Shown in pieces: positions 3,465 to 63,915 of a DNA stretch of 64,000 nucleotides. The position numbers were made by a program, and so were the translations under genes. The stretch is from Verrucomicrobiia bacterium (lineage in GTDB: Bacteria > Verrucomicrobiota > Verrucomicrobiia > Limisphaerales > UBA11358): assembly GCA_036498725.1 (NCBI GenBank), contig DASYEY010000083.1, forward strand, positions 21,674 through 85,673, read 5' to 3'. The stretch's first letter is position 1. Every line of letters starts with the position of its first letter. The notes beneath the pieces are model-generated. The model had not been told where the DNA came from and made no database searches. It saw nothing but the letters and a program-made list of their open reading frames with translations.

Positions 3465-3938
3465 TTACTTCCGCGGCAAGGCCACCTGGCCGGTGCGGGT
3501 GATTTCCTGCACGCCAAATGAATTCATCAAGTCGAGGAATTTCTCCACCTTGCTGCCGTTGCCAGTGATCTCGATGGTCAGCGATTTCGGCTGCACATCC
3601 ACGATCTTGGCGCGAAAAATATCCGTGATCTGCATCACTTCGGCGCGCGACTTGGAATCCACCGCGATTTTCACCAGTACTAGTTCGCGGTCCACCGCTT
3701 CACCAGCCCGGAAGTTTTGCACCTTGATGACATCGGGCAGGCGGTTGAGTTGTTTGACGATCTGCTCCAATTTGGCTTCATCACCCGTCGTGACAATGGT
3801 CATCCGCGAGAGGCCGGCATCGTGCGTGGGACCGACGTTGAGCGTATCAATGTTGTAGCCACGTCCACTGAATAAACCAGCCACGCGCGTAAGCACGCCG
3901 AACTTGTTCTCAACCAAAACTGAAATGGTATGTCGCAT
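3465..3938 (-). CDS. ilvN: Acetolactate synthase small (regulatory) subunit
   Basis: 'HTISVLVENKFGVLTRVAGLFSGRGYNIDTLNVGPT' is the ACT domain. I chose the ATG at 3938 (MRHTISV...). The ORF track extends to 3992, but that N-terminal extension is not family-like. Confidence 0.9.
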   Translation of the reverse strand: MRHTISVLVENKFGVLTRVAGLFSGRGYNIDTLNVGPTHDAGLSRMTIVTTGDEAKLEQIVKQLNRLPDVIKVQNFRAGEAVDRELVLVKIAVDSKSRAEVMQITDIFRAKIVDVQPKSLTIEITGNGSKVEKFLDLMNSFGVQEITRTGQVALPRK

Positions 3939-4005
3939 ATAAAACCGTTGGAAACGGACAGAAAGCCTAGCAACCCGGACAAATGTGGTCAATTTGCAAA
4001 TTTAC
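3880..4005. repeat. Repeat A: ilvN 5' end plus upstream region (master copy of the duplicate at 5215-5340)
   Basis: By hand alignment, 3914-3974 versus 5248-5308 shows 8 mismatches in 61 nt. The region contains the 12-bp perfect palindrome aatttgcaaatt (3992-4003). Confidence 0.8.
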
Positions 4006-4100
4006 CGGCGGCGGATGTTTGCGCCGGGCGCCGTTTTTGTCCGCCTCGGAAACTTTCTCCTTGCCCGCCACTGACACGCAGTTCAGTGTGGCAGCATTAA

Positions 4101-5198
4101 ATGCCAAAACGCGTCTGCCCTCATTGCGGTTTTGCTTTCGAGATCCCGAACTCGCTGGTCGGCGAAGATTTTTATTGTCCGCGCTGCGCCAAGAACATCA
4201 TGCAACCCCGTGAGGTCCGCGCCCCGCACGAAAAAATAAAATTGGTCGTCACGCCGCCGCCGGAACAGGTCTATTCCGCCCTCCAGCTCGCCGACATCGC
4301 ACAGCGGATCATCACCAACGTCCAGTGTGTCATCGTTGGCAAATTGGAGTCGGTGACCCTCGCCGTCGTCGGTTTGTTTGCGGAAGGGCATCTCCTGCTG
4401 GAAGATGTTCCGGGCGTGGCGAAAACCATGTTGTCCCGCGCCGTCGCGCAAAGCGTCGGTTGCAGCTTCAAGCGCATCCAATGCACGCCGGATTTGCAGC
4501 CGGAAAATGTCATTGGCGATTTCATTCTCGACCCGACGACAGGCAGAAAAGATTTTCGTTTCGGCCCATTATTTTCGCAGATGGTTTTGGTGGATGAAAT
4601 CAACCGCGCCAGTCCGCGCACCCAGGCGGCGTTGCTGGAAGCCATGGGCGAAGGCGCCGTGACCATGGACCGCACTACGTACCGGCTCGAACGTCCGTTC
4701 ATGGTGATGGCCACCCAGAATCCGATTGATCAGGAAGGCACGTTTCGTCTGCCGGAAGCGCAGATGGACCGTTTTCTGATCCGTATGAGCTTGGGTTACC
4801 CCAGTGCCGAAGAAGAAAAAGAGATGTGCGTCCGCGCGCAGCAGCAACATCCGATTGAAACGATCAAGCCGGTGACGACCGCAGAGGAAATTTTGAAATG
4901 CCAGCGCGGGGTGCGCGACATTACCGTCGGCACCGAAGCGCGCGATTATCTCGTCGCGCTCACCCGGGCGACCCGCGAACATCCGGCGTTGCGCCTCGGT
5001 GCCAGCCCGCGCGGTTCCCTGGGATTATTTCACGCCGCCCAAGCCCTGGCGGCGATTCAAGGGCTGGCCTCAGTTTCCATCGAACATATCAAAACCATCG
5101 CCATCCCGGTGTTGGCCCATCGTTTATTGGTGCGAGCGGAAGCATTGAAAGAATATCCGGATGGCGCTGCTGTGATCCGCGAAATCCTCAAAAAATAA
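4101..5198 (+). CDS. MoxR-family AAA+ ATPase with N-terminal CxxC...CxxC zinc ribbon
   Basis: The zinc ribbon is 'CPHCGFAFEIPNSLVGEDFYCPRC'. The MoxR core includes 'LLLEDVPGVAKT' (Walker A), 'VLVDEINRA' (Walker B) and 'VMATQNPIDQEGTFRLPEAQMDRF'. Confidence 0.85.
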   Translation: MPKRVCPHCGFAFEIPNSLVGEDFYCPRCAKNIMQPREVRAPHEKIKLVVTPPPEQVYSALQLADIAQRIITNVQCVIVGKLESVTLAVVGLFAEGHLLLEDVPGVAKTMLSRAVAQSVGCSFKRIQCTPDLQPENVIGDFILDPTTGRKDFRFGPLFSQMVLVDEINRASPRTQAALLEAMGEGAVTMDRTTYRLERPFMVMATQNPIDQEGTFRLPEAQMDRFLIRMSLGYPSAEEEKEMCVRAQQQHPIETIKPVTTAEEILKCQRGVRDITVGTEARDYLVALTRATREHPALRLGASPRGSLGLFHAAQALAAIQGLASVSIEHIKTIAIPVLAHRLLVRAEALKEYPDGAAVIREILKK

Positions 5199-5214
5199 AC
5201 CCGGCGTACTTTAG

Positions 5215-5340
5215 TCAACCACGCGAACAGGCCAGACTTATTTTCAGCCAAAACTGAAATGGCATTCTGCATATAAAACCGCTGGAAACGGACGGAAAAC
5301 CTGGCAACGCGTATGGAACGGATTCAGTTTGCAAATTTGA
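5215..5340 (-). pseudogene. Repeat A': decayed duplicate of the ilvN start codon region and its upstream sequence
   Basis: The minus-strand 'MQNAISVLAENKSGLFAWL' (ATG 5272) mirrors ilvN 'MRHTISVLVENKFGVLTRV'. Upstream nucleotide similarity includes tttgcaaattt. The reading frame then runs antisense into the moxR 3' end. Confidence 0.75.
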
Positions 5341-6689: not shown

Positions 6690-6798
6690 TAAACGCCAAA
6701 ACGCGCCTGGTCCCATTGCAATCTTGCTTCGACATCCCAAACCCCTGGTCGGCGAAGGTTAAATTTTTATTGTCAGCGTTGTACCAGAAACAGCATGT
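6690..6798 (+). pseudogene. Repeat B': frameshifted fragment homologous to the moxR start and zinc-ribbon codons (4098-4205)
   Basis: aaacgccaaaacgcgcctggtcccattgca...ctggtcggcgaagg...tttttattgtcagcgttgtaccagaaac aligns with aaatgccaaaacgcgtctgccctcattgcgg...ctggtcggcgaaga-tttttattgtccgcgctgcgccaagaac. The ATG is lost (acg) and there are indels. Confidence 0.7.
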
Positions 6799-6927
6799 AA
6801 TCTCACAAGGTTTGGACTCAAAATAAAAACCCAAACATCCCGAAATTAGACCTACATTCGTCCGGCCGCCGGCAAGTTTTTATACAGTTAAATTTGCAAT
6901 CAGCCGCCGCACCGCTATTTTTCTCCT

Positions 6928-10017: not shown

Positions 10018-10053
10018 AACGACAGGGCAAAGCTGTGGCTTTGCCCTGTCGTT
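10018..10053. other. Perfect 15-bp stem-loop
   Basis: aacgacagggcaaag-ctgtgg-ctttgccctgtcgtt. On the minus strand it is followed by tata..., a weak U tract. Confidence 0.6.
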
Positions 10054-10059
10054 AAATCA

Positions 10060-10135
10060 TCCTCATTCTCATCGTCGTCCTCGTTCTTGATTCTCCCCCA
10101 GCCTGCGAGGACGAGGACGACGATGAGAATGAGGA
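10060..10135. repeat. Long hairpin: 24-25 bp perfect inverted repeat of a (GAN/TCN)-rich motif
   Basis: The left arm cctcattctcatcgtcgtcctcgt (10061-10084) is the reverse complement of acgaggacgacgatgagaatgagg (10111-10134), with a 26-nt loop. A related motif lies at 63651-63677. Confidence 0.85.
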
Positions 10136-10189
10136 CGACAGCCAAGGTCGAAAAATATGAATGAGCGCAACCTTCAAATACAATAGTGG

Positions 10190-10335
10190 TGGGTGGAATG
10201 GGTTGCGCTGCGACCCATTATGACGGCAACGCCGGCACTTTGTGGTGGGCTCTGATATTTGGACGCGCAACAACTCATCACCTGACGCTACGCTCGGTGA
10301 CGATTTTGGCCTCAGCGCAGCCAAAGCCACCGTTA
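10190..10335 (+). ncRNA. Candidate structured RNA / structured repeat, copy 1 of 3
   Basis: Hairpins are H1 10197-10219, H2 10222-10236, H3 10275-10303 and H4 10305-10325. The conserved blocks actttgtgg and gcgcagccaaagccacc are present. Stems covary with the copies at 58137-58282 (-) and 63431-63580 (+). Confidence 0.45.
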
Positions 10336-12781: not shown

Positions 12782-12994
12782 GATCGTAGCACGAAGCTGC
12801 CTTAATTTGTGGCATCGGACGTGAGTCCGCTGCATTCTATTTTTAGACAGGATTACCAGAATTATACAGGATTCATTTTCATCCGGTTAACTCTTTCCAA
12901 AAACCGGTTCAGATTCTTGAAGAAAATAAACCGAATGAACCGAATTTTAAAATCTCGGGCAGTCCGTGTGGTGATGAAGGTTCGGGTGTATCAG

Positions 12995-13140
12995 TAGCCT
13001 GACAGCTCCGTTAGGAGCGAAATCTTTGTAGCAATAAATCCAAAAAATCTCCAGCTCCAAAGGAGCGGCATATGTCGCTCCTATGGAGCTAGTATTTCTT
13101 GTGTGCTGATTCTACAAATATGTCGCCCCACTGGGGCTTT
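12995..13140. repeat. Cluster of four short REP-like GC hairpins
   Basis: The stems are gctcc-N4-ggagc (13005-13018), gctcc-aaa-ggagc (13054-13066), tatgtcgctcc-tat-ggagc (13071-13089) and tatgtcgcccc-act-ggggc (13119-13137). The same unit type occurs at 58381-58427. Confidence 0.7.
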
Positions 13141-52964: not shown

Positions 52965-55031
52965 ATGAATCCTGCTAAAATAATCGCCGGGTGTTTGCTG
53001 TTAAACGTGGCTTTAATGGAAGCATTTTCCGCCCAGCCAGTCTGGCTTGACAGCCTGAATATCTCCACCGCTACGCAAGGCTGGGGCGAGCCACATAAGA
53101 ACCAATCGGTTGAAGGACATACGCTTACGATTGGCGGCAAGCAGTTCAAGCGCGGGTTGGGCACGCACGCAGAAAGCATGCTGTATCTCGCACTCAATCG
53201 CGAGGCGCTGAATTTCGCGGCCAATGTCGGCATTGACGATGAAGTCGGCAGCCAGCCAGACGCCAGCGTGGAATTCTTCGTCATCGGCGATGGCAAAATT
53301 CTCTGGCAAAGCGGCGTCATGCATGCGGGAGAGCCATCCCGGCGTTGTACGGTGGATCTTACCGGTGTCAAAACCTTGCTCCTGAAAGTTGGCGAAGGTG
53401 GTAATGGCATAGCTTATGACCATGCGGATTGGGCGGATGCCGAAATAGAATCCAAAGGGGCGACGACATTTGTCGCCAGTGGCAGCGAAATTCTCGATCC
53501 CGTAGCTCCCTACATCCTGACCCCGCCTCCGCCATCGACCCCGCGAATCAATGGTGCCGATATTTTTGGTGTTCGGCCTGGCTCGCCGTTTTTATTCACC
53601 ATTCCGGCAACGGGCAAACGTCCCATGACTTTCTTCGCCGACGGACTGCAGGCGGGCTTGCATTTGGATGCCAAGACGGGTCGCATTACTGGCAAGTTGG
53701 AGAAAATGGGAAAATATGTCGTGACTTTGCGCGCGGAAAATGCGCTGGGAGTGGCCACAGAAAAATTTCGCATCATTTGCAGCAACCAGATTGCCTTGAC
53801 GCCGCCGATGGGGTGGAACAGTTGGAATTGTTTTGCCGGTGCCGTTTCGGAGGATAAGGTTAAAAGCGCGGCGGATGCCATGGTCAAGAGCGGCCTGATT
53901 AACCATGGCTGGACATATATCAACGTGGACGATTTCTGGCAAAATCAGCGCGATTCAAGCGACCCAACCCTGCGTGGTCCGTATCGCGACACCAGCGGTT
54001 TTATCATTCCGAACTCACGTTTTCCTGACATGAAAGGCCTGGCGGAGTACCTTCATTCACTTGGCTTGAAAGCGGGTTTGTATTCTTCGCCCGGACCCTG
54101 GACCTGTGGCGGATGCACCGGGAGCTGGAAGCACGAGCGACAGGATGCAGAGACTTATGCCAAGTGGGGATTTGATTATTTGAAGTATGACTGGTGCAGC
54201 TATTTCAATGTTGCCGACGGCCAGGATCCCGAAGGCAAAAACGTTCCCCATTGGGGCGAGACCAACAATGAAGCTGTAGTTGAGTATCCCTATGGCTTAA
54301 TGGGCAAATATCTTCGGGAACAACCACGAGATATTATTTACAGTCTGTGCGAATACGGGATGGCTGACGTGTGGAAATGGGGCGCTTCGGTCGGAGGCAA
54401 TTGTTGGCGGACCACCGATGATATTAATGAACGCTGGGGAGTGGCAACCCATGGCTGGAAAGATGGCGGTGCAGGCGGTGGTTTGGACGTTATTGGTTTC
54501 AATCAGGACCAGGCCGCTCCCTATGCCCAGCCAGGAAACTGGAATGATCCAGACATGCTGATCGTCGGGCAGGTTGGCTGGGGAAATCCACATCCCTCAC
54601 GTCTAAACCCTGATGAACAATATGCCCATATCAGCCTTTGGTGCCTGCTGTCGGCGCCATTGCTGATTGGTTGCGACATGGAAAAGCTGGACGCCTTCAC
54701 GCTAAACCTGTTGAACAACGATGAAGTTCTGGCCGTGGATCAAGACGTGCTGGGCGGGCAGGCAACCTGTGTAATTCATGATGGCGACTTGCGTGTTTAT
54801 GAAAAGAAACTGGAGGATGGCAGTCGTGCCGTGGGTTTCTTCAACGTGGGAACAGCAAAGTTGAGTTTAACTTTTCACGAATTTAAGGCGCTAAAATTAG
54901 CCGGCAATATTAACATCCGCGACTTGTGGCGACAAAAAAATGTTGCGATGGTAAACACAGCGAAGGATGGATTTTCGTTCACCATCTCTCCCCATGGGGT
55001 AATGTTGTATAAGCTGACGCCAGTGAGATGA
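52965..55031 (+). CDS. NPCBM-domain / GH27 alpha-galactosidase (or alpha-N-acetylgalactosaminidase)
   Basis: The NPCBM block is 'GWGEPHKNQSVEGHTLTIGGKQFKRGLGTHAES...YDHADWADAEI'. The GH27 blocks are 'TPPMGWNSWNCF', 'INVDDFW' and 'DYLKYDWC'. Confidence 0.85.
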   Translation: MNPAKIIAGCLLLNVALMEAFSAQPVWLDSLNISTATQGWGEPHKNQSVEGHTLTIGGKQFKRGLGTHAESMLYLALNREALNFAANVGIDDEVGSQPDASVEFFVIGDGKILWQSGVMHAGEPSRRCTVDLTGVKTLLLKVGEGGNGIAYDHADWADAEIESKGATTFVASGSEILDPVAPYILTPPPPSTPRINGADIFGVRPGSPFLFTIPATGKRPMTFFADGLQAGLHLDAKTGRITGKLEKMGKYVVTLRAENALGVATEKFRIICSNQIALTPPMGWNSWNCFAGAVSEDKVKSAADAMVKSGLINHGWTYINVDDFWQNQRDSSDPTLRGPYRDTSGFIIPNSRFPDMKGLAEYLHSLGLKAGLYSSPGPWTCGGCTGSWKHERQDAETYAKWGFDYLKYDWCSYFNVADGQDPEGKNVPHWGETNNEAVVEYPYGLMGKYLREQPRDIIYSLCEYGMADVWKWGASVGGNCWRTTDDINERWGVATHGWKDGGAGGGLDVIGFNQDQAAPYAQPGNWNDPDMLIVGQVGWGNPHPSRLNPDEQYAHISLWCLLSAPLLIGCDMEKLDAFTLNLLNNDEVLAVDQDVLGGQATCVIHDGDLRVYEKKLEDGSRAVGFFNVGTAKLSLTFHEFKALKLAGNINIRDLWRQKNVAMVNTAKDGFSFTISPHGVMLYKLTPVR

Positions 55032-55445: not shown

Positions 55446-55535
55446 GGAAGGGTGGCTGAGTGGTTAAAGGCATCTGACTCGAAATCAGAAGTACGGGTAA
55501 CCGTACCGGAGGTTCGAATCCTCTCCCTTCCGCCA
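55446..55535 (+). tRNA. tRNA-Ser (anticodon CGA), CCA encoded
   Basis: The acceptor stem is ggaaggg/cccttcc. The anticodon stem-loop is tctga-ctCGAaa-tcaga. There is a long variable arm (gtacgggtaaccgtaccg) and a T arm ggaggttcgaatcctc. The discriminator is g, followed by cca. Confidence 0.9.
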
Positions 55536-55710: not shown

Positions 55711-56652
55711 ATGTCCGGGACCAATGAATTTCTCATCCAGCATGGGCTGCCCATTTTATTCGGCATCGTTTTGCTCGAACAAATTGGCATCCCCATTCCC
55801 GCCGCCCCCTGGTTCCTGGCCGCCGGGGCCCTGGCTGCTGCCGGCCATTTCAACGCCGTCGCCGGGCTATTGCTGGCCACCCTCGCTTGCCTGATCGCCG
55901 ATACGGTTTGGTTTTATATCGGCAAATTCCATGGCGCACGGGTGCTCAGCCTGCTTTGCAAGTTTTCACTGGAACCGGATTCCTGCGTTCGTCGCACCGT
56001 CAATGTCTTCGAGCGTTACGGTTGGCGCGGTATTCTGATTGCAAAATTCATTCCCGGCATGAGTACCATCACCCCTCCGCTGGCCGGCATGAGCGGAACC
56101 AATGCCACGCGATTTTTATTTTTCGATGCCCTTGGTGCATTGCTTTACTGTGGGGTTTATCTCTCGCTCGGCTGGCTCTTCAGCGATCAGATCGCCCAAT
56201 TCGGGGCCGCCTTTACGCACATCGGAGGAAATATACTGCGGGCCGGTTTGATCGTGATCGCTATCTACATTATTTGGAAATACTGGCAACGCCAGCGACT
56301 TCTGCGCGAGCTGCGCATGGTTAAAATCGATGTGACCGAACTGCGTAAACTGATCGATGGCGAGCCCAAGCCCTGGATCCTGGACCTCCGTTCCCAGACC
56401 GAGCTCGAAAAAGATCCGGTAGTCATCCTTGGGGCCATTCATCTTGCGTTTGATGAAGTTGAAAAGCGTTGCCAGGAATTTCCCCGCGACTGCGAAATCA
56501 TCACCTACTGCGACTGTCCCAACGAAATCACCAGTGCCAAAACCGCCTTGCATCTCCGAAAACGTGGATTTGCCCATGTCCGTCCGCTGCTGGGAGGCTT
56601 CACTGCCTGGCGTACCGCCAATCATCCCCTCAGCAACTGGACCAAAAACTGA
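55711..56652 (+). CDS. DedA/VTT-family membrane protein fused to a C-terminal rhodanese domain
   Basis: The start is ATG 55711. 'HGLPILFGIVLLEQIGIPIPAAPWFLAAG' is DedA-like. The C-terminal 'ILDLRSQTE...IITYCDCPNEITSAKTALHLRKRGF.HVRPLLGGFTAW' is a rhodanese domain with an active-site Cys loop. Confidence 0.7.
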   Translation: MSGTNEFLIQHGLPILFGIVLLEQIGIPIPAAPWFLAAGALAAAGHFNAVAGLLLATLACLIADTVWFYIGKFHGARVLSLLCKFSLEPDSCVRRTVNVFERYGWRGILIAKFIPGMSTITPPLAGMSGTNATRFLFFDALGALLYCGVYLSLGWLFSDQIAQFGAAFTHIGGNILRAGLIVIAIYIIWKYWQRQRLLRELRMVKIDVTELRKLIDGEPKPWILDLRSQTELEKDPVVILGAIHLAFDEVEKRCQEFPRDCEIITYCDCPNEITSAKTALHLRKRGFAHVRPLLGGFTAWRTANHPLSNWTKN

Positions 56653-56680
56653 CTCCGCATTTATTTTTACCTCAAACACT

Positions 56681-58090
56681 ATGCTTACACCAACCCGCAA
56701 CTATTTCAAATTTGGATGGCTTCTTATCGGATTATTATTTCTAGTTCGCGCCCAAGGCGTGCATGCAGAAAATGATTCCTGGACCAACCAGGCGGTTCAG
56801 GAAGCCGACTGGCAAGCTCGCGGTTGCGTCAATGATGAGCGGGGACAATGGTTTCGGGCTGCGAAATTTGGCGCGTTCATTCATTTCGGCGTTTATTCAG
56901 AACTGGGAGGCTATTGGCAGGGCAAACTGTATGATCCAGCCGAACAGATTTTAGGGTTGGGCGACCATCATCTGGCCATTCCCTTGCCGCAGTATGATGC
57001 CGTCGCGGCCCAATTTAATCCCGCCAATTTTAATGCCCATGAATGGGTCCGGATGATCAAAGACGCCGGGCAAAAATATTTGATCATCACGACCAAACAC
57101 CATGATGGATTTTGCATGTATCCCACCAAAACTACGGATCATAACATCATGTCAAAAACTCCGTTTCGTCGCGATGTCATCCGGGAGCTTGCGGATGAAT
57201 GCGAAAAACAGGGGATCGTGTTTTGCGTTTATTATTCCATTGGCGATTGGTGTGCCGCCGATGTGATGTCGCGCCAGTACAAAACGTACCCGGCTTACAT
57301 GCGCGCGCAATTGAAGGAATTGCTGGATAATTATCATAATATAAAAATGATCTGGCTGGATAATTACTGGTACGTGGACAATCAGTGGACCAACGATGAG
57401 AGCCACGCCAGGGAGCTCTATGCTTATATTCATTCGCTCAACCCGAATGTATTGATCAACGATCGTTGCGGTCGCGGCGCCAGTTCGACGGACGGGGATT
57501 ATGCGACACCGGAAAACCAGTTGGCCGGATCGCGGCAAAACCGTTATTTCGAAGTGGTCATGACGGATACGGCTGATGACAACTGGGGCTGGGTCAAAGG
57601 CGCAACGAACTACCGCAATCCCGGCGATTTGATCCATAACTTGATTGATAGCACCAGCAAGGGCGGCAATTTTGTGCTCAATGTCGGCCCGACCGCCACC
57701 GGCGAATTTTCAACTGAACATCAAGCGATCTTAAAAGTCATGGGAAAATGGCTGGCCACCAATGGCGAGGCCATTTACGGCGCAGTGCCCGCCCCGGAAT
57801 GCCAGCCCAGTTCGCAAAATGGTGCGCAATACTATGCCACCAAGCAGGGTAAAAACATTTACCTCCACGTCACTTCGTGGCCGTCTGATGGCAACGATTT
57901 AACCCTCGGCATCAAACGTACTGATTTGGTAAAAATAGAATTGCTTGATCATTCTTTACCGACACCCCCATTCAGCCAGCAGATCATCGGAAATATCACT
58001 CAAATCAAAATCACCCGACCGGCCGTGATCGACCCTTACGCCACGATTATCAAATTGAGTTTTAAAAATACCGTAGCCGGTTCAAATTAA
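56681..58090 (+). CDS. GH29 alpha-L-fucosidase
   Basis: The start is ATG 56681, with a signal peptide. 'WFRAAKFGAFIHFGVYS' and 'AGQKYLIITTKHHDGFCMYPT' are GH29 signature blocks. Confidence 0.85.
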   Translation: MLTPTRNYFKFGWLLIGLLFLVRAQGVHAENDSWTNQAVQEADWQARGCVNDERGQWFRAAKFGAFIHFGVYSELGGYWQGKLYDPAEQILGLGDHHLAIPLPQYDAVAAQFNPANFNAHEWVRMIKDAGQKYLIITTKHHDGFCMYPTKTTDHNIMSKTPFRRDVIRELADECEKQGIVFCVYYSIGDWCAADVMSRQYKTYPAYMRAQLKELLDNYHNIKMIWLDNYWYVDNQWTNDESHARELYAYIHSLNPNVLINDRCGRGASSTDGDYATPENQLAGSRQNRYFEVVMTDTADDNWGWVKGATNYRNPGDLIHNLIDSTSKGGNFVLNVGPTATGEFSTEHQAILKVMGKWLATNGEAIYGAVPAPECQPSSQNGAQYYATKQGKNIYLHVTSWPSDGNDLTLGIKRTDLVKIELLDHSLPTPPFSQQIIGNITQIKITRPAVIDPYATIIKLSFKNTVAGSN

Positions 58091-58136: not shown

Positions 58137-58282
58137 AATGGGTGGCTTTGGCTGCGCTGCGGCCAAAGTCGTGGCCGAGCGTAGCGTCAGGCGACGAAAA
58201 GAACACGTCCAGTAACTGACCACGCCACAAAGTGACTGCTGCGCAGTCATAATAGGCCGCGGCGCGACCTATTCCACCCATT
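58137..58282 (-). ncRNA. Candidate structured RNA / structured repeat, copy 2 of 3 (inverted orientation)
   Basis: It is closed by a 9-bp helix aatgggtgg/ccacccatt (58137-58145 with 58274-58282). H1 is 58251-58273 and H2 is 58234-58248. The core ggtggctttggctgcgctgcggccaaagtcgtggccgagcgtagcgtcaggcgacga lies at about 58141-58196. Confidence 0.45.
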
Positions 58283-58340
58283 CTAGAATTTGTCTTCAAA
58301 ATGGCATTCCATTGGCAACGAAAGGGATTTCTTGATACTA

Positions 58341-58475
58341 GCCCCACCTTTTAAGGTGGGTTTACATGATGGCTCAATAAAAAGTCCCGTAGGGACGGCA
58401 GAAAAATTCTTTCGTCCCCCTGGGACTTTCATTTTCTAGACGATAATTATCCCAGTGTTAAAACACTGGGCTATT
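58341..58475. repeat. Cluster of short GC hairpins (REP-like)
   Basis: The hairpins are cccacc-ttttaa-ggtggg, gtccc-gta-gggac, cgtcccc-ct-gggac and cccagtgtt-aa-aacactggg. The unit style is the same as at 12995-13140. Confidence 0.65.
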
Positions 58476-58778
58476 CTCAAAAAAATAGCTTAAAGACACG
58501 CCCTGGACCCTCCGTTCCGTTCTATCGAATTTAATTCTGCTAACGGTTCTTCAGAACCGCAGCCGTCGATTTTTTATTTCCTCTGCCAACTGGATCAACA
58601 GCGAATGTGGACTTGCTGTCATTCCAGTTTCAATTTCTCCCCGCCACCACGTCAGGAACAGACACGAACCGGAAACAAATGAGGAGCGGGCTGGAATTTT
58701 TCTGATTTTGTTCCATTGTGAAGCGAGAGACATACTTCGTCTGCAAAGTTGCCGGTTAAACAACCAAAGAAATATTTT

Positions 58779-59786
58779 ATGAATTATGTAAAGTTGGGAA
58801 ATACGGGCCTCCAAGTATCGCGCGTTTGCCTGGGCTGCATGAGCTATGGCCAGACCAAAGTGACTCCCTGGCCCGGCATGCTCAATTGGGCCTGGACCTT
58901 AAATGAAGCGGATAGCCGTCCATTCATCAAACGTGCTTTGGAATTAGGCGTGAATTTCTTCGATACCGCCAATGTCTATTCCATTGGCGAAAGCGAAGCC
59001 GTCTTGGGGCGCGCCATCCGCGATTTTGCCCGCCGTGATGAGCTCGTTATCGCCACCAAGGTCAATGGTGCAGTTCGACCGGATGTCAATGGTCGCGGTC
59101 TGTCACGCAAAGCGATTTTGACGGAAGTTGACCAGAGCTTGAAACGACTGGGCACGGACTACATTGATCTCTACATCATTCATCGGTTCGATTATCAAAC
59201 TCCGCTCGAAGAAACTTTGGAAGCCCTCAACGATGTCGTCCGGTCCGGCAAAGCGCGTTATCTCGGAGCCTCGTCAATGTATGCCTGGCAAATGATGAAG
59301 GCCCTCGGCATTCAGCGGGCAAATCGGTGGGCGCCCTTTGTCTCCATGCAAAATTATTACAATCTGCTCTATCGCGAGGAAGAACGTGAAATGCTGCGTT
59401 TATGTCTGGCGGAAGGCATCGGAGTGACTCCCTGGTCACCGCTGGCGCGTGGCCGTCTGGCCCGCCCGTGGACTGACGAACCACCCACCGAACGCGCCAA
59501 GACTGATAATTTCGCCAAGACGTTGTACACCAAAACGACCGACATTGATAAGCCGGTCGTTGATCGCGTCAATGAGATCGCGCAAAAACGAGGATTGCCA
59601 CCCTCGCAAATCGCGCTGGCGTGGTTGCTGCACAAGCCGGTGGTCACTTCACCGATTGTGGGCGCAACCAAACCGCATCATCTCGAAGATGCGGTCGCAG
59701 CGCTTTCCATCAAACTTTCGGAAACAGAAATCAAACAACTGGAAGAACTGTATCAACCACATCCAGCGACCGAGGCATTCTCTTGA
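58779..59786 (+). CDS. Aldo/keto reductase
   Basis: 'MNYVKLGNTGLQVSRVCLGCMSYG', 'FFDTANVYS.GESE' and 'IDLYIIHRFD' are present. Confidence 0.9.
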   Translation: MNYVKLGNTGLQVSRVCLGCMSYGQTKVTPWPGMLNWAWTLNEADSRPFIKRALELGVNFFDTANVYSIGESEAVLGRAIRDFARRDELVIATKVNGAVRPDVNGRGLSRKAILTEVDQSLKRLGTDYIDLYIIHRFDYQTPLEETLEALNDVVRSGKARYLGASSMYAWQMMKALGIQRANRWAPFVSMQNYYNLLYREEEREMLRLCLAEGIGVTPWSPLARGRLARPWTDEPPTERAKTDNFAKTLYTKTTDIDKPVVDRVNEIAQKRGLPPSQIALAWLLHKPVVTSPIVGATKPHHLEDAVAALSIKLSETEIKQLEELYQPHPATEAFS

Positions 59787-61834: not shown

Positions 61835-61888
61835 CTGGCCATTTTCGGACATGAAGACAAAATCATTTTGATGTCCGAAAATGGCCAG
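61835..61888. promoter_or_regulatory. 54-bp palindrome in the ogt / adaA-alkA divergent promoter
   Basis: The perfect 18-bp arms are ctggccattttcggacat (61835-61852) and atgtccgaaaatggccag (61871-61888). The spacer itself contains caaaat-c-attttg. Confidence 0.6.
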
Positions 61889-61921
61889 ATGCTGCCAGCA
61901 TAAAGGGTTACAAAATCCATC

Positions 61922-63400
61922 ATGCAACTCGATCCAAAAATCCTTTACCAAGCGCTGCTCGCGCGGGACACGCGTTTTGACGGCACCTTTTTTACCGGGG
62001 TTACTTCCACCGGCATTTATTGCCGGCCGATCTGCCCGGTAAAACCGCCCAAGCTCGTAAACTGCCGGTTTTATGAACACGCTCCGGAAGCTGAATCGGC
62101 GGGATTTCGTCCCTGCCTCCGATGCCGCCCCGAACTGGCGCCGGGCAATGCTCCCGTGGATAATTCCAAACGGATCGCTCATCGGATTGTCCAACGCATT
62201 GAAGCCGGCAATCTCGAAGAAAAGGCGGCGCTGGAAGCGGTTGCCGACGAATTCAAATTAAGTTCGCGGCAAATCCGGCGCATCATTCAAAAAGAATTAG
62301 GCGTGGCGCCGATCCGGTTATTGCTCACCCGCCGGTTGTTATTGGCCAAGCAATTATTGACCGAAACAAAATTGCCGGTCATCGAGATCGCCTTTGCCAG
62401 CGGCTTCGCCAGTTTGCGCCGCTTTAACGATGCGTTCAACCGGCGCTATGGCATGCCGCCTACCCGCTTGCGCCGCTCCGCCGCCGCGAACGACGGGCCA
62501 ATGGCCAGCACGGATACCATCACCCTGCAACTGGCGTATCGTCCGCCGTACGATTGGCCGGGCGTGCTGGCTTTTCTCAAGACGCGCGAATTGAAAGGCG
62601 TTGAGTGGGTGACGGAACATTTTTATGCCCGCACAGTGCAGCTTGGCGAGCAGCGGGGTTGGATCAAAGTCACGCTGGCACCAAAGAAAAATGCGTTACT
62701 ATTGGAATTCACGCATAATTTGATCGCCGGTTTGCCAGCACTGTTACGACGGGTGCGGGATTTGTTTGATCTGGACGCACGACCAGACGTCATCGCCAAA
62801 CATTTCGAGCATGACCAACATCTGGCTTCGATCATCAAAGCCAATCCCGGACTGCGCGTACCTGGTGCCTTCCATGGCTTTGAACTCGGATTGCGCGCCA
62901 TCCTCGGCCAGCAGATCACCGTGAAAGCGGCCACAACCATCGCCGGGCGGATGGCAACCGCTTTTGGTGAACCGATCACCACGCCCTATCCAGAACTCAA
63001 CCGACTGACACCGTCGGCCGGGCGCATTGCAAAAGCCAGCGTGGATAGTGTGGCCAAGCTGGGTATCGTGAAGGCCCGTTGCCAAAGTTTGATCGCATTG
63101 GCCAAAGCACAAAAATCCGGAGAAGCATCGCTGGACGATGACACCCATTCCGATCCCGAAGAGATTATTCGACACCTGGTGACTTTGCCCGGTATCGGTC
63201 AGTGGACCGCGCATTATATTGCCATGCGAGCCTTGCGCTGGCCGGATGCTTTCCCCAAGGAGGACATTATCGTGCGCCGGGAGCTTGGTGGCGTTACGGC
63301 CAAACAAGCCGAAGAGTTGGCGAAAGACTGGCGTCCATGGCGAAGTTATGCGGTGCTGCACCTTTGGCGAAAAGCTAAACAATCATCAGCCGCTTTTTAG
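61922..63400 (+). CDS. Bifunctional Ada-N (Zn methylphosphotriester sensor)/AraC-HTH regulator fused to AlkA DNA-3-methyladenine glycosylase II
   Basis: 'RDTRFDGTFFTGVTSTGIYCRPICP' and 'GFRPCLRCRP' form the Ada Zn-binding part. 'IAFASGFASLRRFNDAFNRRYGMPP' is the AraC HTH. The C-terminal HhH-GPD part includes 'LPGIGQWTAHYIAMRAL..PDAFP..D'. Confidence 0.85.
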   Translation: MQLDPKILYQALLARDTRFDGTFFTGVTSTGIYCRPICPVKPPKLVNCRFYEHAPEAESAGFRPCLRCRPELAPGNAPVDNSKRIAHRIVQRIEAGNLEEKAALEAVADEFKLSSRQIRRIIQKELGVAPIRLLLTRRLLLAKQLLTETKLPVIEIAFASGFASLRRFNDAFNRRYGMPPTRLRRSAAANDGPMASTDTITLQLAYRPPYDWPGVLAFLKTRELKGVEWVTEHFYARTVQLGEQRGWIKVTLAPKKNALLLEFTHNLIAGLPALLRRVRDLFDLDARPDVIAKHFEHDQHLASIIKANPGLRVPGAFHGFELGLRAILGQQITVKAATTIAGRMATAFGEPITTPYPELNRLTPSAGRIAKASVDSVAKLGIVKARCQSLIALAKAQKSGEASLDDDTHSDPEEIIRHLVTLPGIGQWTAHYIAMRALRWPDAFPKEDIIVRRELGGVTAKQAEELAKDWRPWRSYAVLHLWRKAKQSSAAF

Positions 63401-63430: not shown

Positions 63431-63580
63431 CATGGGTGAAATCGGTCGCGCTGCGACTGATTTTGCCTGTGCCACAGGCACTTGGTGGCATGCTTTTGTA
63501 GTGGGGCGCTCTATTTCGTCGCCTGGCGCTGCGCTCGGCGACGACTTTGGCCGCAGCGCAGCCAAAGCCACCAACTGGGC
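63431..63580 (+). ncRNA. Candidate structured RNA / structured repeat, copy 3 of 3
   Basis: Hairpins are H1 63438-63462, H2 63464-63478, H3 63515-63543 (perfect 8-bp stem) and H4 63545-63565. The blocks acttggtgg and gcgcagccaaagccacc are present. Confidence 0.45.
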
Positions 63581-63625: not shown

Positions 63626-63705
63626 AGAAATCAGCGGCGATTTCTGCTCTTCCTCATCGTCATCATCGTCGTCCTCGAAAAATCTTCTATAACTCGAGGA
63701 GGATG
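63626..63705. repeat. Two hairpins, the second built on the same (TCN)-rich motif as 10061-10084
   Basis: The first is gaaatc-agcggc-gatttc (63626-63643). The second has cctcatcgtcatcatcgtcgtcctcga (63651-63677) pairing imperfectly with tcgaggaggatga (63693-63705). Confidence 0.6.
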
Positions 63706-63735
63706 ACCAAGGAGGCGCATCAAATTGTTTCCCCC

Positions 63736-63915
63736 TAGAGCGGTTCAAGAAATACTGTAGCCATTCGGGAAGAAAAGAACAGCTGCGGTCTTTTTGGGTT
63801 TTGGCGTCGTTTCGGCTCCGTCACAGGTTTTTTCAAACCTGCTCCTTCGCCGAAGCCTCGCCAAAACCCAAAAATCTTCGCTCCGAACGGCCACAGTATT
63901 TCTTGAACCGCTCTA
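63736..63915. mobile_element. ~180-bp extended palindrome / MITE-like element
   Basis: The outer arms tagagcggttcaagaaatactgt (63736-63758) and acagtatttcttgaaccgctcta (63893-63915) are perfect. Inner arms tttttgggttttggcg / cgccaaaacccaaaaa pair, as do the central caggttt / aaacctg. No ORF is present. Confidence 0.5.

Follow-up and report, generated by a model that had tools for sequence, protein, structure and literature searches.

Three copies of a unit of about 140 bp are found in a 64-kb stretch of DNA from a Verrucomicrobiia bacterium (contig DASYEY010000083.1, positions 21,674 to 85,673; hereafter the window). In the preliminary description of this stretch, the hairpins of the unit were taken to be maintained by compensatory mutations, and an independent sRNA and a structured mobile repeat were left as possible readings. 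The question raised by the locus is whether a function in RNA or the mobilization of DNA lies behind the conservation of the hairpins.

Architecture of the unit

The limits of the unit are taken from the sequence and run from the first G of GGTGG to the last C of CCACC (Table 1). All three proposed copies are present, and their three-way alignment has a mean column identity of 80%. No fourth copy rises above noise in an unfiltered covariance-model scan of the window, where the next best match has 9.3 bits (E 1.2). The layout is the one proposed, a closing GGTGG/CCACC helix with H1, H2, ACTTTGTGG, a variable linker, H3 and H4 following one another inside it. RNAalifold on the three copies reproduces the pair changes pointed out earlier, namely G-C, A-U and C-G at the fourth pair of H1, three switching positions in H2, and A-U versus G-C at the sixth pair of H3. 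Copy 1 has mismatches, A.G in H2 and A.C in both H3 and H4. The single-sequence folds of the three copies are uneven, with sense z-scores of -1.5, -4.7 and -5.7.

Across the family the unit is 116–155 nt long. H1 and H4 are 23-nt hairpins, within the 20–40 bp size of REP palindromes, and are paired in 97.0% and 93.7% of their cells, respectively. The only CGTC in the unit is base-paired, inside the H3 stem. The most divergent members (L026–L028) are without ACTTTGTGG. One copy of 81 bits (L006, 3205–3320) does not have the 3′ half of H1 and the 5′ half of H2, and is a decayed family member.

Table 1. Positions in the window of the three copies and of the parts of copy 1
Feature	Position	Strand	Remarks
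Copy 1, whole unit	10192–10331	+	cmsearch 126.7 bits, E 6e-29
Copy 2, whole unit	58141–58278	-	cmsearch 129.4 bits
Copy 3, whole unit	63435–63572	+	cmsearch 131.9 bits
5′ terminal GGTGG	10192–10196	+	Pairs with CCACC 10327–10331; closing helix P1 or terminal inverted repeat
H1, 10-bp hairpin, tip YGCGCTGCG, GCT triloop	10197–10219	+	7/10 pairs compensated
H2, 7-bp hairpin, variable triloop	10221–10237	+	6/7 pairs compensated
Conserved unpaired motif CACTTTGTGG	10236–10245	+	Kept in 24/28 aligned copies, missing in L026–L028
Variable linker	10246–10274	+	Length and sequence differ among copies (alignments A4, A6, A8)
H3, 8-bp lower stem (consensus CCGTCGCC/GGCGACGG) and near-invariant tip TGACGCTRCGCTC	10275–10303	+	98.8% of cells paired, 4/12 double changes
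H4, tip CGCAGCGCR (reverse complement of H1 tip), AGC triloop	10304–10326	+	6/9 pairs compensated
3′ terminal CCACC	10327–10331	+	Partner of GGTGG in P1

The genes next to the three copies encode a GH63-like hydrolase, an SASA esterase, a fucosidase, an aldo-keto reductase and Ada-AlkA (Pfam). Copy 2 is antisense to both of its neighbors, the fucosidase gene (56429–58090, +) and the aldo-keto reductase gene (58749–59786, +). Copy 3 starts 35 nt past the stop codon of ada-alkA (61922–63400, +).

Other hairpins are located close to the copies. A perfect 16-bp hairpin (10018–10053) and then a long one with 31-nt arms that are 94% complementary (10057–10138) lie about 50 nt upstream of copy 1, and this region attracts junk miRNA matches from Rfam. 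The arm motif TCATCGTCGTCCTCG of the long hairpin recurs about 65 nt downstream of copy 3 in an imperfect hairpin (~63651–63712), and the hairpins beside copies 1 and 3 may belong to a second hairpin repeat family. A cluster of small GC-rich hairpins adjoins copy 2 (58340–58470). The hairpin at 58451–58486, outside the element, gives a sub-threshold match to Acido-Lenti-1 (22 bits against a threshold of 37 bits, E 0.1).

A family of 28 copies in Limisphaerales

A pattern scan with one genome per species gave 11 loci, of which 10 are in genome bins of Verrucomicrobiota/Limisphaerales and one is in a bin labelled Bifidobacteriaceae. The latter locus has a 99.85% identical twin on an unbinned metagenome contig (L004 and L017), and we suspect that its label is a binning error. 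A pattern scan of metagenomes in which H1, H2 and H4 were left unconstrained gave seven more loci, all of which show the full architecture. A covariance model was built from 19 copies, and scanning with it revealed second copies in five loci. Translations of spurious ORFs led to four further copies, which are more divergent, and one further copy comes from the same sample as the window. The window itself matches a third-party Verrucomicrobiae genome bin at NCBI and a JGI contig. The covariance-model search suggested in the preliminary description extends the three window copies by 25, and the family comprises 28 copies in Limisphaerales genome bins and metagenome contigs. Weak model matches at L003:5765, L015:5846 and L008:4317 lie inside coding sequence and are noise.

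The element is dense where it occurs. There are three copies in the 64 kb of the window and six second copies in ~228 kb of index loci, the second copy often being within a few kb of the first. The fragmentary genome bin JBEEMY01 has at least 10 copies on eight contigs. One genome bin contains several subfamilies, and the window copies form a clade of their own.

Some loci show larger arrangements. In L009 (1100–2320), two tandem copies bracket a gene pair that looks like a ParE/RelE-type toxin-antitoxin system, as judged by eye from ORF translations, and the duplication that accompanies the tandem copies includes the 3′ end of the gene next to them. One genome bin has a subfamily located at the tip of a ~270-nt hairpin (L011, 4150–4445; DNA fold z -9.6). 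Either the unit has a longer version there, or it has been inserted into another palindrome and is nested in it. A flanking motif, GGRTTATGYCKTTGRYGGAA, recurs beside three copies (L011 4150–4445, L001 2316–2335 and L007 31–50).

Covariation of the stems

Over the 28 distinct copies, 96.8% of the cells are standard pairs, and 23 of the 43 pairs show double changes (175 cells). None of 500 column shuffles reaches any of the pairing measures, and pairing falls to 31–51% when the 3′ partners are slid by 1–3 columns. In the lower stems of H1 and H4, as many as five pair types are found at a single position. Because 23 of 43 pairs are compensated, the hairpins themselves are selected and not only the identity of the arms. 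The unit is a structured non-coding element with hairpins kept by selection. This was the central claim made from the window copies, and the additional copies keep the proposed pairs. The 28-copy alignment is fitted to the covariance model, which favors the structure; pairing looks the same in A4, an alignment made independently with MAFFT. All column pairs, including the linker, were screened for an extra helix or pseudoknot, and no run of covarying pairs was found. The terminal GGTGG/CCACC is nearly invariant, with 96.4% of cells paired and no double changes. Without any covariation, these ends may form a closing helix or may just as well be a terminal inverted repeat that is conserved in sequence.

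Strong covariation in four helices, together with conserved loops and an unpaired motif, is the usual signature of a functional RNA. The main alternative to a mobile repeat is accordingly a structured non-coding RNA family with a host function, transcribed within the neighboring mRNAs, in which the RNA fold is selected and not mobility. Such an RNA might be processed at the closing helix to a stable product of ~140 nt, or it might act in cis as an mRNA 3′-end or intercistronic stabilizer or as a protein-binding platform. We consider this reading a serious one but rather unlikely. Copies within one genome are 74–86% identical and are still ~97% paired, which speaks for it: each of these old copies could be selected in place for a host function, and this counts against a mobile repeat.

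The non-Watson–Crick cells point the other way. Overall there are 22 G.U and 19 A.C cells, so there is no strand bias and no excess of G.U as a point in favor of RNA. In the two end hairpins the wobbles are mirrored, with 13 G.T and 4 A.C in H1 and 2 G.T and 10 A.C in H4 (Fisher p 0.0025, on cells that are not all independent; p ~0.16 in a hand recount leaving out one recurrent tip position). The bias in H4 is opposite to that in H1, which argues against a structured RNA. A mutation bias from replication or transcription would have the same direction in both hairpins, unlike this pattern. The mirror pattern fits two GGTGG-plus-hairpin units on opposite DNA strands, or homogenization between the arms.

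Boundaries and genomic context

Pairwise identity is 0.73 inside the unit and 0.26, the random level, in the 30 nt on either side, and homology breaks exactly at GGTGG/CCACC. Copies that are 88–93% alike adjoin non-homologous genes in different genomes. The unit is dispersed as a discrete non-coding block into unrelated intergenic sites, and this dispersal suggests that it is mobile. It has no promoter or terminator of its own; in consensus scans of the flanks, none is shared among copies or found above shuffled expectation.

Copies are located in tight 3′-proximal or intercistronic gaps, 1–70 nt and often 1–60 nt past stop codons. Several of them fill intercistronic gaps of 13–60 nt. In several cases, in either orientation, the next start is only 13–57 nt away, and these copies must be transcribed passively within operons. 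Of the two readings left side by side in the preliminary description, the structured mobile repeat fits. The independent sRNA is not supported, given the end of homology at the closing helix, the lack of a shared promoter or terminator and the gaps of 13–60 nt. The first two of these points also weigh against an RNA carried on host transcripts.

A gene on the same strand ends just upstream of most copies, and with co-directional neighbors 11 are sense and 4 antisense (two-sided p ~0.12, hand-calculated). This lean would suit an RNA role and counts against a mobile repeat. At least four copies, however, are antisense to both neighbors, which is hard on an RNA role. The element is kept across genomes in which orthologous proteins are merely 63–69% identical, again as might be expected of a host RNA; on the other side, it is absent from related genomes, with no copy in ~63 kb around the ada-alkA orthologues (74–76% amino acid identity) of three other genomes. 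A precise empty site was not obtained from these orthologues, which at 74–76% identity are not syntenic downstream. In L008, the orthologue of the window gene at 52965–55031 has a copy 3 nt past its stop codon, while the window gene has none and the downstream DNA is unrelated.

The ends give no sign of target-site duplication. The best direct repeat at the ends averages 1.3 nt, compared with 1.5 nt for mismatched flank pairs, and a classical MITE with target duplication is ruled out. No conserved target tetranucleotide is seen beside the left end. There is no match to phage sequences in IMG/VR (two patterns) or to plasmids in PLSDB (blastn). A tblastn search finds no Y1 transposase in 279 kb of loci, a weak result as the queries were approximate. 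A full-length insertion sequence with the same ends was not seen in the examined loci, IMG/VR or plasmids.

Dyad symmetry of the two arms

The two arms of the unit are inverted repeats of each other, the left one made up of GGTGG, H1 and H2 and the right one of the H3 tip, H4 and CCACC. When the left arm is compared with the reverse complement of the right arm, 26–36 positions are identical, against ~25 for shuffles. There is also complementarity between the triloops (GCT/AGC and GCA/TGC), and the H3 tip is the reverse complement of the H2 core. In copy b of L009, H2 and the H3 tip are altered in concert to TCCCGC..GCGGGA. A separate repeat search found the ends of copy 2 as 28-nt arms that are 79% complementary. 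The lower stems of H1 and H4 differ, and ~85 nt lie between the two hairpins.

The 11-nt tips of H1 and H4 are complementary and inverted, and RNAalifold even prefers tip-to-tip pairing. The mutual complementarity of the H1 and H4 loops had been noticed before and is real. The pseudoknot proposed from it is not upheld by any covarying run, and dyad symmetry is the better explanation: the loops are complementary because the right arm is an inverted copy of the left arm. Such symmetry is typical of DNA elements, and the antisense strands of the copies fold about as well as the sense strands. Both properties are unfavorable to a structured RNA.

In a further reading, the unit is a series of sites on duplex DNA, spread by recombination. 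The repeated CGCTGCG/CGCAGCG cores of H1–H4 would be bound by a protein of the host, for example a nucleoid-associated or topological factor. The 7-mer CGCTGCG or its complement recurs in mirrored arrangement, in three hairpin tips (H1, H3 and H4) and, in the major subfamily, also in H2, and there is a precedent in the BIMEs of E. coli, which bind IHF and gyrase. Duplex binding would not account for the double changes by which the variable lower stems remain self-complementary. There is no candidate protein and the distribution is patchy, and we regard duplex sites as improbable.

Known families, coding potential and recombination sites

At the gathering threshold of Rfam 15, no model matches the element. 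The only match in the window is a tRNA-Ser with anticodon CGA (55446–55532). With permissive thresholds, copy 1 has no match at E ≤ 10, and six more copies (2, 3 and those in L001, L007, L016 and L018) have none at E ≤ 1. The unit was not recognized as any RNA family from the outset, and these searches, permissive ones on seven copies included, return no Rfam or known-repeat match that would change this; the want of an Rfam relative is also a point against a structured RNA. No description of the element was found in the searchable literature. A riboswitch or leader, already doubted in the preliminary description, is out, as the copies adjoin unrelated genes, in some cases in antisense orientation.

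A small-protein gene has next to no chance of being the explanation. ORFs of 60–110 aa overlap the copies, copies 2 and 3 start with ATG, and an 86-aa ORF is called in a JGI assembly; yet every frame is closed in some of the copies (the one most often open is antisense, 17/23; sense frames, 6–11/23), the unit lengths of 116–155 nt do not differ by multiples of three, and a 2-nt indel shifts the frame in copy 1. The ORF of copy 3, searched against 5.8 billion proteins, matches only itself and, weakly, one other sequence that is another copy. Frame analysis and two protein searches rule out coding, and the overlapping ORF is not conserved as a protein. An integron attC site behind gene cassettes shares the folded imperfect palindrome of ~140 nt and the position, often a few nucleotides past a stop codon, but it is just as implausible: the ends are GGTGG/CCACC without RYYYAAC/GTTRRRY core sites, the flanks are unconserved, the neighbors are large housekeeping genes in both orientations, and no locus examined has a cassette array or integrase.

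Comparison with known repeats

The closest systems in their working are REPINs, inverted REP doublets mobilized by RAYT tyrosine transposases, and the BIMEs of E. coli. Genomes with REPINs have tens to hundreds of copies and a single-copy RAYT gene that the repeats flank. REPs are located downstream of genes and form inverted dimers, and a REP palindrome has a conserved unpaired tetranucleotide, GTAG (or CGTC), at one end (PMC3733652). Like these, the element is a short non-coding intergenic repeat, mostly located just past genes or between cistrons, and it has two inverted hairpin units, each preceded by a short conserved tag. Its stems are kept by compensatory change, it leaves no target-site duplication, and it is lineage-specific with several subfamilies per genome. 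BIMEs have a conserved central motif between their two REPs, and the element too has a central module. The differences are in the tag, which is GGTGG and not GTAG or CGTC and which pairs with a partner, and in the ends, which share only the hairpin tips, so that the doublet would probably not zip into one long hairpin. The element has a conserved asymmetric center of ~85 nt with two more hairpins, and the link to RAYT seen in REPINs was not found in the 279 kb of loci searched with approximate queries. A GTAG-tagged REP doublet abuts copy b of L009. Because classical GTAG REP doublets occur in the same lineage, the element is a separate family that coexists with classical REPINs.

MITEs with structured transcripts are similar in other respects. 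The Neisseria Correia/NEMIS, enterobacterial ERIC, pneumococcal RUP/BOX and cyanobacterial Nezha elements are 100–200 bp long with terminal inverted repeats and no coding capacity, and they are intergenic, co-transcribed and strongly folding. Unlike them, the element has no target-site duplication and no related full-length insertion sequence is known for it, and selection acts on the hairpins within each arm and not on arm-to-arm identity. The ends of IS200/IS605 and their miniature derivatives (PATEs) also have subterminal hairpins read as single-stranded DNA, as those of the element may be, without target duplication or long perfect terminal repeats. In IS200/IS605, however, both end hairpins are on the same strand, whereas the ends of the element are mirror images, and its left end adjoins no conserved target tetranucleotide. 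PVC-group Rfam motifs such as Acido-Lenti-1 are likewise multi-hairpin, with several copies per genome and no described function, but neither this nor any other Rfam model matches the element at permissive E.

A probable non-autonomous palindromic repeat

On this evidence the element is probably a non-autonomous, dyad-symmetric interspersed repeat of Limisphaerales, ~140 bp long and similar to REPINs, BIMEs and MITEs, a reading that we hold with moderate confidence. At each end, a GGTGG tag precedes a hairpin whose conserved tip is GTCGC-GCT-GCGAC; this hairpin is H1 when one strand is read and H4 when the opposite strand is. In the interior, H2 and the tip of H3 make up another pair of mirrored hairpins, and the center is asymmetric. 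The unit would be copied, now or formerly, by an enzyme supplied in trans. HUH/Y1-type transposases, such as RAYT and the TnpA of IS200/IS605, recognize hairpins of single-stranded DNA together with a tag and leave no target duplication. By analogy, an enzyme of this type is a candidate here; it would recognize the folded single-stranded hairpins and the adjacent tag, and the two ends would be read on opposite strands. When co-transcribed, the unit probably folds in mRNA as well, and it may then act as a 3′-end or intercistronic stabilizer or barrier, as REP and BIME sequences do. Such an mRNA role would be a side effect and not the cause of spread. The strong conservation of the asymmetric center (CACTTTGTGG and the H3 lower stem) has no role in the repeat model and counts against it. 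Neither a mobilizing enzyme, in the loci searched, nor a pair of filled and empty orthologous sites was found, which is a further point against this model.

Two more far-reaching versions should be mentioned, which we judge together to be a long shot. The unit could be the substrate of an undescribed hairpin-guided mobilization system, a GGTGG-tagged counterpart of REP/RAYT with a four-hairpin body and ends on opposite strands, or it could represent a new class of structured RNA that rides on host transcripts and is released at the closing helix. If either were true, the near-invariant asymmetric center would carry a function absent from known repeat families.

Other repeats in the window

The window has several further features of this kind. 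A MITE-like unit at 63736–63915 has 33-nt terminal inverted repeats (94%) around an inner palindrome with 40-nt arms, and the JGI contig matching the window ends inside it, at ~63840. The spacer at 12990–13140 is full of short GGAGC/GCTCC palindromes. It also behaves as an assembly-breaking repeat, because the matching JGI contig begins there, at ~13124. The divergent ogt and ada-alkA genes, the adaptive-response pair, have between them a perfect 18-bp inverted repeat, CTGGCCATTTTCGGACAT ... ATGTCCGAAAATGGCCAG (61837–61889), as a candidate for their operator. Direct repeats of 99 nt (78%; 3879–3977 and 5213–5311) and of 40–49 nt (73–80%; 4098–4216 and 6690–6811) are located upstream of and at the starts of neighboring genes and may be shared leaders or paralogue fragments.

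Significance

Much work has been done on small palindromic repeats in Proteobacteria, but very little in the PVC superphylum. The family also carries a warning. Covariation alone would pass the element as a 'novel structured RNA', its ORFs get called as hypothetical proteins, and repeats of this kind break metagenome assemblies. With 28 copies, five helices and heavy covariation, the family is a clean test case for whether DNA mobilization or RNA function lies behind the conservation of hairpins. The GGTGG tag and the conserved hairpin tips could lead to a mobilizing enzyme in Limisphaerales.
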